This document shows, in pieces, positions 29,215 to 38,638 of a stretch of DNA of 64,000 nucleotides. How positions within the stretch are numbered: the stretch's first letter is position 1; each line of letters begins with the position of its first letter. Source of the stretch: a virus. The notes beneath the pieces were generated by a model, which made no database searches, was not told where the DNA came from, and worked only from the letters and a program-made list of their open reading frames with translations. Both the position numbers and the translations under genes were made by a program. The DNA lies in IMG/VR virus record IMGVR_UViG_3300035523_000133, positions 695 through 64,694 of that record; one strand, written 5' to 3'.

Positions 29215-30933
29215 CTATATGGAAATTACCCCTCTGGTCTCGTAGATTGAGCGCGTCGGCGGCGCCTTCAGCATCGCTCGAACATGGGCGTTCATCAATG
29301 CGGCAACCGGGTCAATTCGCTCCACGGATTTGGCTTTGTCCAGCATCATGTTTCGGTTGTGGTCTTCCCGAGTGAGCGCATTGCTCATGGCCCAGGTCAG
29401 GACTTCGTTCCCGTCATGACAGATCATGCGTGATAGCACGAGCGCCCGAAAGTCCTTGGTTGGCTCACTGAGCGTTTTCATGCCCTGCACAATCTCAACC
29501 ACTTTGTAGCCCTTGTCTGTCATCTCGTTAGCGAAGTTGGTTGCGCTCCACTGGTCAAAGCACAGCTCCTTGACAATCCACCCGTTGGCTGCGACCTGGT
29601 CCTGGATATATTGCATGACCAGACGCTGGTCGACCTGGGCGCCTTCTGTTTCCGTGATCCATCCGTCTTTGATCCATTTGTCGTATGGGACTTTGTCTGA
29701 CTTGCGATGGGCCGCGACCGTCTCCGCCGGCATAAAGGAATGCGAAAGGACGGCGAATTTGCCGTCCCCAAGGTCGAACTCAAACGCGACGCTGGTCAGG
29801 TCAATCCTGGCCGACAGGTCAACACCGGCATGGCATTCTCGGCCTTTGAGGTCCGGCATGATGTCGACCTTGCACGCCTTCCATTTCAGCATCGGCATGT
29901 AACCATCTTCGCGCTGGTCGACCCAAACATTCATGCTCTTGGTCATGAAGTCCCGCATCTTGCGGGGGTCGTCCAGTGCCTCATCGAGTTCGGTTTGTAG
30001 GAACTCCATGCTGAACGAGTCATCTGCCAGCAACGGGTTAGCCTTGGCCCAGTTCGCCGAATCCTTGATATCGTCGTCTTTGTCCAGTTGGGCGATATAG
30101 GCGAAGTACCGCTCATTCGGCGGTAGGGTGCCGTCCAGGGTCTTACAAAGATAGCTGTACTCTTTGTAACAGGGGCAGTTGAGACTATGGCCAGCAGTTG
30201 TGATGATCATGAGGAGGGGCTGCCGCCGCTTGGCCATGCCCTTAACGAGCAGATTGTACATCTCGTCTGTGCGGTGGGCGTGATACTCGTCGATGATGCC
30301 GAAATGGGGGTTGAAACCATCGAGGCTCTTGGTGTCCTTGGACAGAGGAACAAACTTGCTGTTTGACTTCAGGTGGTAGATCTTGTCCCGGCCCGGCTCC
30401 AGGCGTTTGAGCAGGTCCGGCGACGATTGCACCATGACCTTTGCGGAGTCATAGACAATCCGGGCTTGGTCCTTCTTGGTGGCTGTCGCATAGACTTGTG
30501 AGCCGGGCTCGCCCTTATGCCCAGAGGTCTTCCAATCCGGTGGCCGATCCGCCATCAGCATGTAAAGACCGATTCCGCTCAAGCTGGTGCTTTTGCCGTT
30601 CTTGCGCCCGAGTTGGATGTATGCTTTGCGAAAGCGTCGATAACCGGTGTCCTTATGGACCCAGCCGAACACGCTACCGAAGATGAATTTCTGAAACGGC
30701 GCCAGGATGATGGGTTCTCCGGCTAGTTCGCCTTCGACATGCCGGCAGAACCCGAAGAAATCGAAAACCCTCTCCGCCCGCTCGATATCGAACACATAGG
30801 GAAACCCATCTGTGCCTTGTCGGTCTATGTCACGCAGATGCCGCTCACATGCCAGCCGGACCCAATTCCCGGCGATGATCCGGCCCTCTGCCACGTCCAG
30901 GGCATACTGGGTCGTTGCATCGAGGTCGGGCAT
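29215..30933 (-). CDS. terL: Terminase large subunit
   Basis: RKNGKST Walker A, IIDEYH Walker B, ITTAG, GVDLS, FDQW, RIDPVAA. Confidence 0.97.
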   Translation of the reverse strand: MPDLDATTQYALDVAEGRIIAGNWVRLACERHLRDIDRQGTDGFPYVFDIERAERVFDFFGFCRHVEGELAGEPIILAPFQKFIFGSVFGWVHKDTGYRRFRKAYIQLGRKNGKSTSLSGIGLYMLMADRPPDWKTSGHKGEPGSQVYATATKKDQARIVYDSAKVMVQSSPDLLKRLEPGRDKIYHLKSNSKFVPLSKDTKSLDGFNPHFGIIDEYHAHRTDEMYNLLVKGMAKRRQPLLMIITTAGHSLNCPCYKEYSYLCKTLDGTLPPNERYFAYIAQLDKDDDIKDSANWAKANPLLADDSFSMEFLQTELDEALDDPRKMRDFMTKSMNVWVDQREDGYMPMLKWKACKVDIMPDLKGRECHAGVDLSARIDLTSVAFEFDLGDGKFAVLSHSFMPAETVAAHRKSDKVPYDKWIKDGWITETEGAQVDQRLVMQYIQDQVAANGWIVKELCFDQWSATNFANEMTDKGYKVVEIVQGMKTLSEPTKDFRALVLSRMICHDGNEVLTWAMSNALTREDHNRNMMLDKAKSVERIDPVAALMNAHVRAMLKAPPTRSIYETRGVISI

Positions 30934-31397
30934 TACCCGAACCGTTCCTCGAACGGGTCTTTGGGCTCCTCATTGCTTTGCGCGACAGCGATTTTGGCCA
31001 GAGCCGCCGGGTTAAAGCCAAAGTCCGTCGCATATTGCCTGATGATCTTTGCAAAGGTGTCTAGGATCTTAGCGTTCGGTGCAGGCCTTTCATCCTCATT
31101 CTCACCCGCCCAGTCCTTACCGGCCTCGGTTTCGTGCCGATACCGGCTGACGGCGTCCGCATATATGGCCAACGGTACCATATAGACGTTTGCGAGCAGA
31201 CCGCGCTGCCGCAAATCGGCCGCCACTCGGCGGAATTCGCTCCGACCATATGCGTCCAACCAGGCAGGGCAATGAACGTCGTTGGAGGCCGGCTTGATCC
31301 GTTCTTCGGCCGCGGCACGTTGCCGAATTTCCTTTTTGGTTAAGTGCTTCTTGCCATCATTCTTAAGCACTTCTAGCGGGCGTGCTCTCCTCCCCAT
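30933..31397 (-). CDS. terS: Terminase small subunit, P27 family
   Basis: GKKHLTKKEI..R...E, CPAWLD...EF.RV, FGFNPAALAKI, DPFEERFG. Confidence 0.9.
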   Translation of the reverse strand: MGRRARPLEVLKNDGKKHLTKKEIRQRAAAEERIKPASNDVHCPAWLDAYGRSEFRRVAADLRQRGLLANVYMVPLAIYADAVSRYRHETEAGKDWAGENEDERPAPNAKILDTFAKIIRQYATDFGFNPAALAKIAVAQSNEEPKDPFEERFG

Positions 31398-31573: not shown

Positions 31574-32125
31574 TTAGGGTACTGCGGGCCGTACCCCCGT
31601 CACCGCAGCGGATTCCTGAGCCTCTGCCCTTGGCCCGTCCGGCGTTGCCGCGGAAGCGGGTTCATCCTCGGCAGGGGCCATCACAGTTACCGCAGTCTCA
31701 TCCTCGCCCTTCGCCAGGTCAACCCCAATGACGGCGAGCCGTTCCGCTTCGGCATCTATCTGGCGTTCGAATGCTTCAACCTCTTGGTCGAGCTTCGCCT
31801 TGTATTCCGCCACCGCATCGGCCGCCTTGTCCCGCAGTTCCACCCGGCCCCGCTTCTGCTCCACGCAGGTTCCATCCCCACATGAGCACAGGTGAGCGGC
31901 ATGGTCGTTGTTCTCCCTGTGGTCGCAATAGAGCAGCGCCCAGCCGGCTTCGCTGAGTTCAGCCTCGACGCAGCGGTCAGAGACGTTGACCCCATCCAGA
32001 TAGATGGCCTTCGTCGCGTCGTTCCATAGTTCATCGTCGAACCTTTTGCCGATGTGAAACGGCCCGCGCTTATAGAACGGGATGGCGTAACGCTCGGGAT
32101 GACAGGATTGACACTGGTGATCCAT
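31574..32125 (-). CDS. Cys/His-rich hypothetical protein, paralogue A
   Basis: HQCxxCHPER...HLCSCG.G.C...KRGRVEL. Confidence 0.75.
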   Translation of the reverse strand: MDHQCQSCHPERYAIPFYKRGPFHIGKRFDDELWNDATKAIYLDGVNVSDRCVEAELSEAGWALLYCDHRENNDHAAHLCSCGDGTCVEQKRGRVELRDKAADAVAEYKAKLDQEVEAFERQIDAEAERLAVIGVDLAKGEDETAVTVMAPAEDEPASAATPDGPRAEAQESAAVTGVRPAVP

Positions 32126-32589: not shown

Positions 32590-33270
32590 TTAGCCTCCAA
32601 TTTGGATCGAACCGTTCATGCCGGTAGTCGCCTCCATGCAGGTGCCATGGGCGATAGCGAACCATTCGCTGTTGCCGATTCGCACCTCGGCGTGCAGGTG
32701 CCGGAGCAGAGCGTTGCCAATGCGCGCCGCCGTCTTAGCCTTGAGGGCGGTCAGGCGCATGAAAAAGGCCAGCACCTTCATGCCAGCCAGGACGGGCTTT
32801 TCATTTCTCAGCCTTGCCTCCACCTTGACCGTCAGCGCATTCATCGCCGCGTCCGCTTCCTTTCCTTGTTCGTCTCGACGCCCGTTTCCGGGTCCGTCTG
32901 TACCGCAATCTCCACGCTCTGCCCCGGGATAAGCCAGGTCTACGCCGATGAATGCGGGCTCGTAGGGGATGGGGACGCGTTGTCCGTTGGTCACCAACTC
33001 CACCCGTCCCCGCTTAAGTTCTTGGCAGACACCCTGACCGCAGGAGCAAACGTGAGGGCGCTGGTTAACGTCGCCATGATCGCTCTGGACGACTACCCAA
33101 CCTTCCTCGCCCGCCATGGCTTCGGTGACGCGCCGCATTTGCACGCCGTTCAGAGCGACGTTGAAGCCGATGTTCCAACTATCAAACCGACCCGCCACGT
33201 GGTTCGGTCCCTGCTTCTCCGCTGGCAGGCCGAAGCGTTCGGGGTGACACGCCGGGCATTGATGGCTCAT
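32590..33270 (-). CDS. Cys/His-rich hypothetical protein, paralogue B
   Basis: Same N-terminal domain as 31574-32125; possible internal start MNALT. Confidence 0.7.
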   Translation of the reverse strand: MSHQCPACHPERFGLPAEKQGPNHVAGRFDSWNIGFNVALNGVQMRRVTEAMAGEEGWVVVQSDHGDVNQRPHVCSCGQGVCQELKRGRVELVTNGQRVPIPYEPAFIGVDLAYPGAERGDCGTDGPGNGRRDEQGKEADAAMNALTVKVEARLRNEKPVLAGMKVLAFFMRLTALKAKTAARIGNALLRHLHAEVRIGNSEWFAIAHGTCMEATTGMNGSIQIGG

Positions 33271-33825: not shown

Positions 33826-34191
33826 TCAGCTTTTCGTCTCTCGTCCGAAACCACCGTCTTCCCGAGCGGTTTTCGAATCGTGGCACGGCTTACAAGTTCC
33901 TTGGTGATCGGTCGGGTCCCAGAACAATTCATAGTCGCCCTTGTGGGGTTTGATATGGTCCACTACCGTACTCGCGGTGACTGTCCCGCTCTGAAGGCAG
34001 ATGCGGCACAGGGCGTTCTCTGGTTGCGCCAGGAACCACTTCCTGTACCGCTGCCACCTGGCATCATAGCCCCGTTCCGCCGCCGATCCCCTGTCTCTCT
34101 CTCGCTTCTTGGCATGTTCAGGGCAGGGTCCGCCTTGAGTCAGGTTCGGGCATCCGGGAGTCGTGCAGGGCCGTTGTGGTTTCATGGGCAA
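33826..34191 (-). CDS. Terminase-associated HNH endonuclease (HK97 gp74-like)
   Basis: MP.KP.RPC..PGC, RGSA.ERGYD.RW, CRIC, VVDHIKPHKGD..LFWD, CKPCHDSKT. Confidence 0.92.
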   Translation of the reverse strand: MPMKPQRPCTTPGCPNLTQGGPCPEHAKKRERDRGSAAERGYDARWQRYRKWFLAQPENALCRICLQSGTVTASTVVDHIKPHKGDYELFWDPTDHQGTCKPCHDSKTAREDGGFGRETKS

Positions 34192-34299
34192 TGCTCTCGT
34201 CTCCTCCAGAAACGCAAAAAAGGAGGCCGCCATAGACAGAGATGTCCCCCTGCAAAAGGGGAACGGTCTCATGTCCATGACGGCCTCCGAGTTTTTCGG

Positions 34300-35138: not shown

Positions 35139-35975
35139 TTATACGGTTGGCTTATTGCCCTCGTGGGCCAAGGCTCTTGCCATAGCGTTTATGAGGGCGT
35201 GGATAGGCGACGCAATCCCGGTGCTCCTGCTGTCGTCTGGTTGCAGGTTTCCAGCCGCATCCTCCTTCAATGCAAGGCGCCCAAGCCCGAATGCTTGCGG
35301 CACTTCGCTGACGATGCGCCGCGCCTGCATCAGTTCAACGACCAACCGAGTCGGGTGTGTCAGGCTATGAAAGCCTTGCCTAACCTCTGCGGCGGCCAGT
35401 CCGGCGTGGGTCAATCGGCCCGCAACGGCGGCCATATCCCAAGGGTCGAACCCCACTTCGGGGAAGTTGTATGTGTCGGCGGCATCCATGACGGTGGTGG
35501 CCACCGTGTTGGCGTTGACCGCTTCTCCGTGTGCCGCTGTCCAAGTCCAGTCCAGTGTCCGCCATTGACCTTCCGAGTCATCGGGGGGGAACAGCAGCAC
35601 GAATGCCGCTTCTCTTCCGTGTCCAGCCGCGCTGAGACCGCCAAAGCAGCGGCGGCCCCGCATATCGGTCGGATGTCGGGTGGTCGGCGGGTAGTCCAGC
35701 CACAGGGTCGGTGCCAAGTCAGAACCAAGTCCAGGTTTGTGCTTCGTCAGAATCTCCACCAGGACCGGCTTGCCGTCCTGTATCTTGACCGTCACATCGC
35801 AGAAGGGCGTCAGGTGGGATTCTTTCTCCTCAAGGACCGCCTGAATTCGCCTGGTGATCGCAGCGAATTCCTCATTGCGCACGGACGCTGTCCCGGACTC
35901 CTGCGGAATTCGGGGCGGCGGTTCGTGCCGGTAAGGCGGCAACGGTTTCGGATCACTCTTCGGCTGATACGGCAT
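35139..35975 (-). CDS. DUF2292-like domain fused to degenerate terminase-large-subunit nuclease domain
   Basis: VTVKIQDGKPVLVE; then GRRCFGGL...AFVLLFPP...GFDPW...QGF..L..PT...EDAAGNLQPD...ALINAMARAL collinear with TerL C-terminus. Confidence 0.8.
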   Translation of the reverse strand: MPYQPKSDPKPLPPYRHEPPPRIPQESGTASVRNEEFAAITRRIQAVLEEKESHLTPFCDVTVKIQDGKPVLVEILTKHKPGLGSDLAPTLWLDYPPTTRHPTDMRGRRCFGGLSAAGHGREAAFVLLFPPDDSEGQWRTLDWTWTAAHGEAVNANTVATTVMDAADTYNFPEVGFDPWDMAAVAGRLTHAGLAAAEVRQGFHSLTHPTRLVVELMQARRIVSEVPQAFGLGRLALKEDAAGNLQPDDSRSTGIASPIHALINAMARALAHEGNKPTV

Positions 35976-36026
35976 GGTTCTTCTCCTCCTTCACTCGGGC
36001 TTCCCCGTCGTGTTCCTTGGGTATTA

Positions 36027-36053
36027 CAAAAGCCCCCGCATCGGCGAGGGCTC
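36027..36053 (-). terminator. Intrinsic terminator
   Basis: GAGCCCTCGC-CGAT-GCGGGGGCTT-TTGT. Confidence 0.7.
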
Positions 36054-36070
36054 CTTGTTTTCGGTTTCCT

Positions 36071-36379
36071 TTACTTGACCGCTCGTTCCCTGGCTGCGGC
36101 CTTGAACTCTTCCCAGCCTCCGCAGTGTGCTTCACCGGCGGTGACCAGTTCAATGGTCGCACCAGATGGCTGGGTGGGGGTGATTGACGTCACATAGAAC
36201 CGCATGCCGTGGATTTCGATTTGCCCGTTTTGCTCCATCGCTTGGCGGGCGATCTCCACAAACGGCGCCCTTTCGTCAGCGGTCCGAAGTCGGACGGCAA
36301 AACTGCGCAGGTATTCCGATGATGTGTTGATAATGGACTCGCACATCAACTCCGGCGGCATCGTAACCTTGAGTCCCAT
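36071..36379 (-). CDS. Hypothetical protein
   Basis: Start MGLKV after GGAGGG. Confidence 0.55.
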   Translation of the reverse strand: MGLKVTMPPELMCESIINTSSEYLRSFAVRLRTADERAPFVEIARQAMEQNGQIEIHGMRFYVTSITPTQPSGATIELVTAGEAHCGGWEEFKAAARERAVK

Positions 36380-36416
36380 CTCTATCCCTCCATTCGGGTT
36401 GTTCCCGTTCTTGGCT

Positions 36417-36944
36417 CTATCGGTCAATCAGCTTCAGCAGCCAGTCAAGCACTCTGTTCTCGTGGGCTGCTTTTGTGATTTCGGCTCCTAACTCCATAAC
36501 GGCCTCGCTTAACTCGCAGGCCGTCCCGCGGAAGGTTTCTTTCTCCAATTTGAAGGTATCGCCTCGAAGCGCCCGCTCTTTGAGCGCCTCCAGTTCGGCA
36601 ATGGCGTCGCCGGATGTCACTGCGTCGAGAATCATCCACCGAGGGGCGCCGGCGCTCTGACATTCAAACCGTAGACCATCAACCTTGAGAGCGATCTCGA
36701 ACCCGGCCGCAGCGTCCCTCATTTGCTGCAGGTCGCGGATATAGGCCAGTGCACCGTCGAAATCAAGGGGAGTGGTCTCTGCCATCTCCAGGGCAAGCAT
36801 TAGCTCCTCGTCGGAATATGCAGTCTGCCACACGGCACAGCGTGGCGCCAGATGCGCTCTGACACCAGGCAACCGCTTCGCCTGCCGCTTGCGCCGTTCT
36901 TCGTTCCATTCGACCCCCAGGGCCTTCGCTAAATCGATACTCAT
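36417..36944 (-). CDS. Hypothetical protein
   Basis: Start MSIDL after SD (ORF extends to 36998). Confidence 0.6.
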   Translation of the reverse strand: MSIDLAKALGVEWNEERRKRQAKRLPGVRAHLAPRCAVWQTAYSDEELMLALEMAETTPLDFDGALAYIRDLQQMRDAAAGFEIALKVDGLRFECQSAGAPRWMILDAVTSGDAIAELEALKERALRGDTFKLEKETFRGTACELSEAVMELGAEITKAAHENRVLDWLLKLIDR

Positions 36945-37816: not shown

Positions 37817-38638
37817 CTAACTCGCCGCCTTCCGTCCAAACAGGTGATAGGCCAGGGCGTACAGTTTGTCCATCAGCCCTTCGGCCTCCGCTATGTCCAG
37901 GGGCGGTTTTTTGCTGGATGCCCGCGCCTTCAGGTCGACGTGGTAGCGGTCCCGGAATTCCAGGTAGAGCCGGCCCCACGCCTCCGAGTGGCCGAAGCCG
38001 TTCTCCAGGCAGTAGCTGCGAACCAGGCGGTTCAGTTGCGCCCGAGCGGTCAGGCCGGGAACGTCGCCCGCTGGCGCTGGCAGGGCCGTCAGTTCCTCGG
38101 TTGCTTCCTGTTGCCTTGCCTGCATCCCTTCCACTCTGGCGGCAATGTCGGTTACTTGGACTTGCGTCGTTGCCTGCGCTGTTGCCAGTTCCAGGAGCCG
38201 GCGTTCGTGAGCTTCGTAAGCCTGGGCCATGGCGACGAGAAGTTGGCCTTGGGTGGGTGGGACGACCTGCCGTTGCTCATTCTGGTACGTGCTAACTGCA
38301 AAGTAGGTCTGCGCCATCGCAATTTCGGGCTTGCGCGGGTCTCCGTTCATCGCGATCAGGTAGCAGGCGTACCGGGTCAAATGATAATCCGGTACCTCTC
38401 GCACGCTTCCGCTCCCCAGGTTGACCATCTTCCCGGCTCCGGGAAAATGGTCCGGTGCGTTTCCACCGCTGTTCTCGCAGGCGGCCTTTGCTCGGTCGAT
38501 GGCATCCTCGAAGCGTTCCCATTTCTCGTAGCCCAGACAGGGTTGTAGGTCGCGGGCTGACCAGAACTCCGAGCCGTTCCCTCTGGTCTGCTTGATGCTG
38601 TCGAACAGGGGCCGGGCCTCTACCATCAACTCGTTCAC
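37817..38638 (-). CDS. Antirepressor-like protein (BRO-N/DinD-like N-terminus)
   Basis: FWSARDLQPCLGYEKWERF...DYHLTRYACYLIAMNGDPRKPEIAMAQTYFA. Confidence 0.88.
   Translation of the reverse strand: MNELMVEARPLFDSIKQTRGNGSEFWSARDLQPCLGYEKWERFEDAIDRAKAACENSGGNAPDHFPGAGKMVNLGSGSVREVPDYHLTRYACYLIAMNGDPRKPEIAMAQTYFAVSTYQNEQRQVVPPTQGQLLVAMAQAYEAHERRLLELATAQATTQVQVTDIAARVEGMQARQQEATEELTALPAPAGDVPGLTARAQLNRLVRSYCLENGFGHSEAWGRLYLEFRDRYHVDLKARASSKKPPLDIAEAEGLMDKLYALAYHLFGRKAAS

Follow-up and report, generated by a model that had tools for sequence, protein, structure and literature searches.

A catalytically degenerate terminase nuclease domain fused to a small hairpin module, encoded upstream of the packaging genes of an HK97-like prophage

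The gene at 35139..35975 (minus strand, stop codon included) of the 64,000 nt stretch of DNA analyzed here, hereafter the window, encodes a protein of 278 aa in which a small N-terminal module (residues 1–90) is joined to a TerL nuclease domain that has lost its first and third catalytic aspartates. Judged from comparison with its homologues, the gene is genuine, accessory to the phage and maintained by selection, and not a decaying singleton. No enzyme of tailed phages is better conserved than terminase, which is also one of the main targets of bacterial immune sensors and satellites. To our knowledge, almost no work has been done on stand-alone copies of terminase domains that have lost catalysis. 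The gene described here provides a concrete test case: a dead nuclease domain that appears to be kept by selection, is fused to a portable module, is optional, and is found near packaging genes.

Genomic setting and identification of the nuclease domain

The window forms part of a 204-kb contig, and the genome to which it belongs (6.26 Mb, 99% complete) was assembled from a soil metagenome; the element carrying the gene is a prophage in a soil bacterium, with an HK97-like siphophage region on the minus strand. A search of sequencing runs pointed only to the soil metagenome that is the probable source, and no RNA run was listed. Along this strand, DNA methyltransferases, a DndC-like gene and a sigma factor (54–62 kb) are followed by a Bro-N gene (37817–38638), several ORFans and the dead-nuclease ORF, and then by one ORFan, an HNH gene, about six ORFs, and the genes for TerS, TerL, portal, protease and capsid. 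TerS (30933..31397, minus strand) was assigned by its Pfam match (Terminase_4), and the resident TerL (29215..30933, minus strand) is complete by domain matches and alignment, with both ATPase and nuclease domains and intact catalytic aspartates. The HNH endonuclease of the packaging module is given here in its 119-aa form (33826..34185, minus strand), based on a Pfam HNH match, homologue length and synteny; the ORF was listed as 33826–34278 (150 aa), and the start at 34185 follows the database call (P0180, 119 aa) and some 900 homologues of ~120 aa. A sequence-only reading of this DNA had described the dead-nuclease gene as expressed just ahead of the real TerL. It is indeed upstream, but the two are not adjacent, as HNH, TerS and about six unassigned ORFs intervene before TerL, which starts 4.2 kb further downstream. 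Two paralogous, Cys-rich ORFs (31574–32125 and 32590–33270, both on the minus strand) are inserted between HNH and TerS. They matched no Pfam or PHROG family, are 47% identical over their first ~97 residues, and both begin M-x-H-Q-C-x-x-C-H-P-E-R.

The frame of the dead-nuclease gene opens with an ATG at 35975, placed after a strong Shine-Dalgarno sequence. This start is favored over the database call at M32 because the first residues (YQPKSDPKPLPP) are identical in P0004, one of the homologues described below. These first twelve residues after the start are common to the two proteins while their DNAs differ at synonymous sites, which supports the upstream start and points to constraint on the peptide itself. 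The GC3>GC1>GC2 pattern is normal in both halves of the gene and resembles that of its neighbors. A longer Pro-rich N-terminal peptide (YQPKSDPKPLPP ... EPPP-x-IP-x-E), found at 35880–35975 (minus strand) in the window and at 169–290 in locus L006, is conserved between the window protein and P0004 far above the rest of the protein, and a weaker version is present in P0179, a stand-alone module protein (see later). From its pattern of conservation, this peptide may be a short linear interaction motif.

Residues ~91–272 are a genuine TerL nuclease domain, with an RNase H-like fold and an auxiliary beta-hairpin (the C-terminal part, residues 91–278, is encoded by 35142..35705, minus strand). The Pfam family TerL_nuclease (PF20441) matches residues 146–272 above its gathering score (E = 4.4e-13, 49.5 bits versus a cut-off of 24), PHROG families of terminase large subunits match at 2e-14, and BLASTP aligns residues 104–269 with the resident TerL (25% identity, E = 2e-14). 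The AF2 model, built on a 41-row alignment, has a mean pLDDT of 83 and exceeds 90 across residues ~100–270. Its best match in the PDB is HK97 TerL (6Z6D, E = 2.3e-10), followed by the terminase nucleases of G20c, D6E, P74-26 and SPP1, and searches of BFVD and the ESM Atlas agree with a terminase nuclease fold. Neither net charge nor pI distinguishes the domain from real TerL nuclease domains. No match to an ATPase domain (PF03354 or equivalent) was found in the protein, residues 1–90 matched no family in Pfam, PHROG or NCBIfam, and PADLOC and NCBIfam gave no matches for the protein, its neighbors or its homologues. The earlier proposal of a second, degenerate TerL nuclease domain with an intact frame and no ATPase part is thus confirmed, and the motif pairs that it had listed by eye are reproduced in the BLASTP alignment to the resident TerL. 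Two other arrangements were considered and rejected: a split terminase with separate ATPase and nuclease genes, as the resident TerL has both domains with its aspartates intact, and a functional TerL, as the dead-nuclease protein has neither an ATPase domain nor a full catalytic triad.

Catalytic center, N-terminal module and origin of the fusion

The catalytic center of HK97 TerL consists of D302, D388 and D471, and K463 reaches into it (PMC9410871). A profile alignment to 6Z6D, in which the chain numbering is offset by 10 relative to the paper and the catalytic residues fall on the motifs GLD, FD(R/P)W and RID, places S115, D177 and S256 of the window protein at the three aspartate positions. 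The first and third positions are Asp in all 35 catalytically intact TerL nuclease domains that were aligned (34 taken from complete TerLs, and the fragment P0005), so that the claimed loss of the first and last acidic residues stands. Both are also lost in the three homologues P0003, P0004 and P0007. Across the four family members, the first position is occupied by S, S, C and V, and the third by S, S, N and a gap. Since the replacements differ among members, no alternative active site appears to be maintained. The equivalent of K463 is an Asp in the window protein, and D, H, R or A across the family. Two residues do not vary among the four: D177, at the second catalytic position, and D239, part of the auxiliary hairpin. 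With two of the three metal ligands gone, DNA cutting by the TerL mechanism is not possible, and the protein most likely acts by binding.

Other parts of a TerL nuclease domain are missing as well. The window protein and P0003 lack ~30 residues after strand 3, a segment that is kept in P0004 and P0007 and aligns to HK97 ~332–360 (paper numbering), where it has a helix-helix-strand structure. It is probably the extra alpha-alpha-beta element of HK97 TerL, a region that Fung et al. proposed as a possible platform for HNH (PMC9410871). The C-terminal tails of all four members are also short, at 5–10 residues compared to a median of 18 in TerLs; the C-terminal arm of TerL has been proposed to contact the portal (PMC5727402).

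The N-terminal module (35706..35975, minus strand) is predicted by AF2 to consist of a Pro-rich head, one helix (residues 30–52) and one beta-hairpin (residues 59–77) that ends in TKHKP. The hairpin motif is conserved in all four family members, with the consensus V-T-V-K-V-Q-D-G-K-P-V-L-V-E-I-T-T-K-H-K-P, and is also found in two proteins that carry the module alone: P0179 (144 aa) in locus L009, and the product of L011:277-720 (147 aa), from a phage that was recovered again as L014. These stand-alone proteins end just after TKHKP or carry a short, unrelated tail. In L009 the gene order is Bro-N, module (P0179), two small ORFs, a 583-aa ORF and portal, and in L011/L014 the module gene lies upstream of an HNH gene whose product is 78% identical to that of the window. 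As two other phages carry the module by itself at the corresponding position, the fused proteins look like a module plus a whole TerL nuclease domain. The join is found exactly at the linker strand (W92) that follows the ATPase lid in HK97 TerL. The 583-aa ORF of L009 (2004–3755) occupies the TerL position between the module gene and portal; it had no Pfam match at E ≤ 0.01 and may be a highly divergent terminase.

The earlier description of this region as a DUF2292-like N-terminus holds for the fusion to a distinct module, but the likeness to DUF2292 itself is weak, consisting of one sub-threshold match and one structural neighbor. PF10055 (DUF2292) matched the N-terminus of P0007 only, with 15.1 bits against a cut-off of 22 (E = 0.018), while the scan gave no match for the other four of the five pieces, the N-termini of the window protein, P0003, P0004 and P0179. 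The top structural neighbor in the Atlas is a 50-aa cluster in which 11% of the members carry DUF2292, with a TM score of 0.69 by hit and 0.45 by query. When modeled alone the module reached a pLDDT of 59, too poor for a fold search. What DUF2292/YezD proteins and the module would have in common is a short beta-hairpin with the pattern V-x-V-Q-D-G-K-P-V...E-I-x-T-K. We know of no function for DUF2292, and the hairpin module may serve self-association.

The tree of nuclease domains is a star, in which the window protein and P0003 form a clade (100/100) on a long stem, while P0004, P0007 and the resident TerL are unplaced, the first two on long branches. Descent of all four members from one ancestor is not rejected (AU p = 0.40), and the N-terminal module common to all of them favors one fusion event. 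With only 25% identity to the resident TerL, the domain did not arise by recent copying of that gene. An FPP motif had been taken as a sign of capture from a different TerL lineage. The motif is present, but it is the majority state among TerLs, with the resident TerL being the odd one, and the star-shaped tree does not identify a donor.

Family, gene order and leader motif

An exhaustive HMMER search of 1.84 billion cluster representatives retrieved three metagenomic homologues with the same two-domain layout: P0003 (255 aa, 45% identity to the window protein over nearly the full length), P0004 (345 aa, about 34% identity) and P0007 (300 aa, about 34% identity), all of which also match PF20441. 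The family thus comprises four fused members among the ~15 billion proteins searched. Other searches added none. A word-indexed search with the single protein returned only itself and a TerL fragment, the genomes of 60 relatives contained only ordinary TerLs and no further family member, 400 genomes of the phylum gave only weak, chance-level matches to an N-terminal profile, and viral contigs and one scan of genome contigs held no further members; a metagenome scan recovered only the second copy of the L011 phage (L014). The sequence-only reading had regarded a lack of homologues with the same fusion as the mark of a decaying remnant, and the three found here share both the fusion and the lost aspartates. 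The last helix is strongly conserved in all four proteins (A-L-x-N-A-M-x-R-A-L-A-H). Four intact frames of 255–345 codons at 34–45% identity, together with a normal GC pattern and a confident model of the core, argue for purifying selection.

The loci of the homologues are short metagenomic contigs, and in both of those with downstream sequence the gene lies directly before an HNH gene homologous to that of the window. In L005 the two are separated by a 60-bp gap, and in L006 by a 43-bp gap, with HNH followed by TerS (Terminase_4, E = 7e-27). HNH proteins of the HK97 gp74 type are packaging accessory factors encoded beside TerS and TerL, and have been reported to bind TerL and to stimulate cos cleavage (PMC13595911, PMC9410871). 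The packaging module of another locus, L010, is the closest relative of that of the window (TerL ~77%, TerS ~76% and HNH 73% identical overall; ~75–80% in tblastx segments), and neither the module nor the dead nuclease was found between its Bro-N and HNH genes. The absence from L010 indicates that the gene is accessory or optional, and that its protein is not a core subunit of this type of terminase.

An 18-nt motif, ACGGGAACAACCCGAGTG, is shared by all six loci with a family member, across which the proteins are 28–46% identical, and is found directly 5' of the Shine-Dalgarno sequence each time. It is present in a gapped form in the window (35992..36008, minus strand), and at the same place in L005 (169–186), L006 (134–151), L007 (about 1–16), L009 (about 1001–1018) and L011 (247–264). 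The motif could form a 4-bp hairpin (CGGG/CCCG), and L009 has a compensatory stem (CAGG/CCTG). When the 18-nt motif was used to scan public collections, all matches were at chance level and none came with a related ORF. A role as an ECF-type promoter was considered and dropped, as no conserved -35/-10 pair at fixed spacing was evident by eye, and no sigma-70-like promoter was found for the dead-nuclease gene. Between this gene and its upstream neighbor is a terminator-like stem-loop with a U-run (36026..36058, minus strand; RNA fold -20.5 kcal/mol, z = -2.9 versus shuffles), which a scan with a simple terminator consensus did not list on the minus strand. A second copy of the leader motif in the window (36391–36408, minus strand) precedes the next gene upstream. 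This gene (36071–36427, minus strand), the product of which gave no family match, is listed from a TTG at 36427 but more likely starts at the ATG at 36379 (MGLKV...), with a GGAGGG Shine-Dalgarno and the leader motif just upstream.

Possible roles and relation to known systems

The conserved position upstream of the HNH-TerS-TerL genes of a cos-packaging module suggests a partner of the TerL nuclease domain, and the reading preferred here, held tentatively as a real possibility somewhat short of probable, is that the protein binds without catalysis and thereby modulates cos packaging assisted by HNH. The dead domain would occupy a partner of the TerL nuclease domain, for which the candidates are cos-proximal DNA, the HNH accessory nuclease or TerL itself, and such occupancy would tune HNH-assisted cleavage or packaging by the terminase, with the protein serving as an optional modulator and not as a core subunit. 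Several observations count against it. The segment aligned to the proposed HNH platform (PMC9410871) is the one missing from the window protein and P0003, the family is tiny, and a conserved order in phage late regions is no proof of interaction. The gene also sits in a variable, ORFan-rich region between Bro-N and HNH that would suit counter-defense or competition genes equally well. A complex prediction for the dead-nuclease protein with HNH scored 0.00, and carries no weight either way. A broader and rather unlikely version would make the protein a trans-acting "pseudo-nuclease" subunit in HNH-dependent cos phages, in which a dead TerL nuclease domain, linked to a small hairpin module that self-associates and expressed under a conserved leader element of its own, would dock on the terminase/HNH/cos complex of the phage itself or of a rival and govern the timing, the site or the choice of DNA for cutting; the protein would then be one instance of a wider, unrecognized class of dead terminase-domain regulators.

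The same accessory status, patchy among close relatives, and the variable ORFan region next to Bro-N would also fit a role in competition between phages. Here the domain would act as a dominant-negative mimic, poisonous to assembly or cos cleavage in related superinfecting phages or satellites but harmless to the machinery of its own phage, and a TerL-derived fold could in principle compete for TerL partners. There is a precedent in the satellite protein Gpi, which binds the TerL of ICP1 and blocks packaging (PMC11417361). We consider this role unlikely, however, as the gene shares the strand of the late genes, follows a terminator-like hairpin and has no recognizable promoter of its own, so that expression in the lysogen is not indicated, and as the protein lacks the TerL C-terminal arm proposed to contact the portal (PMC5727402). 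The retained fold would further allow a counter-defense decoy or shield that binds a terminase sensor (Avs1-3, Upx) without triggering it, or masks TerL. The natively folded nuclease domain is a ligand of SeAvs3, certain nuclease domains can elicit a response from KpAvs2, and other stand-alone paralogues of terminase domains exist in phages, such as T4 vs.8 (PMC13601566). Against this, the features that SeAvs3 reportedly reads (active-site residues and bound ATP) and the one mainly read by EcAvs2 (the ATPase domain) are all absent here; sensor binding normally activates Avs, and vs.8 is toxic with EcAvs2 (PMC13601566). PADLOC shows no related family. The absence of the features read by Avs2 and Avs3, and the activation that follows binding, weaken the decoy reading to the point where it is quite improbable.

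A non-functional remnant, produced when a 3' fragment of TerL was joined to an upstream gene by illegitimate recombination and has yet to decay, would account for the lost catalytic residues, the internal ~30-residue deletion, the shortened tail, the rarity of the family and the dispensability of the gene in L010. It would not explain why four members at 34–45% identity keep long frames, fold-defining residues and the conserved last helix, why the coding GC pattern is intact and the core is modeled with a pLDDT above 90, or why leader motif and N-terminal peptide are conserved between loci that carry synonymous differences, and its probability is accordingly put very low. Less likely still is a nuclease or nickase with a non-canonical active site, perhaps formed by D177 and D239 or together with HNH: these two residues are invariant, but what replaces the first and third Asp is not conserved in the family, and the active-site lysine has also been lost.

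Among known proteins, the HK97-type TerL nuclease (PF20441; HK97 gp2, 6Z6D) is the best match by profile and structure, sharing the RNase H-like fold, auxiliary beta-hairpin, preceding linker strand and motifs. The dead-nuclease protein differs from it in lacking the ATPase, in the replacement of two of three Asp and the Lys, in the ~30 missing residues, in its short C-terminal arm, and in its foreign N-terminal module. A terminase nuclease fold without catalysis is likewise found in phi29 gp16, where it has been called an inactive vestigial domain (PMC9410871), and provides a precedent for a structural or binding role. The two are likened by fold; the phi29 domain is in cis with its ATPase and part of an essential motor, whereas the protein described here is separate, optional, and encoded beside a complete TerL. 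T4 vs.8 is also a phage-encoded, single-domain TerL paralogue beside a real terminase, of unknown function (PMC13601566), but it is a copy of the ATPase domain with Walker motifs, while the present protein is a copy of the nuclease domain without its catalytic residues. For gp74-type HNH proteins the relation is one of context and not homology: HK97 gp74 is a non-core cos-packaging factor encoded directly upstream of TerS/TerL in the circular map (PMC13595911), and the dead-nuclease family sits upstream of that HNH gene, but gp74 has an unrelated fold, is catalytically active and is essential in vivo, whereas the dead-nuclease gene is absent from a close relative. With Gpi, which is encoded by the PLE satellite (PMC11417361), there may be a functional analogy, that of a small accessory protein acting on the packaging motor by binding, and no homology is claimed; binding of TerL by Gpi has been shown experimentally, while for the dead-nuclease protein binding is what we infer.

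Should the protein indeed modulate cos cleavage, or compete for the partners of terminase, HNH-assisted packaging would gain a further level of regulation, and even without a phenotype the family would document the exaptation of terminase fragments, with a general reach that is limited by its rarity.

A different phage-like contig carries a protein (P0038, 222 aa) that consists of a stand-alone TerL nuclease and has no N-terminal module. Its gene (L021, 5728–6396; also found in L022, 5232–5900) is located after head and tail-completion genes and before the gene for a HIRAN-domain protein. P0038 has a Glu at the first catalytic position and an Ala at the third, shows the same ~30-residue deletion, and is apparently an independent case of a TerL-nuclease-only protein.
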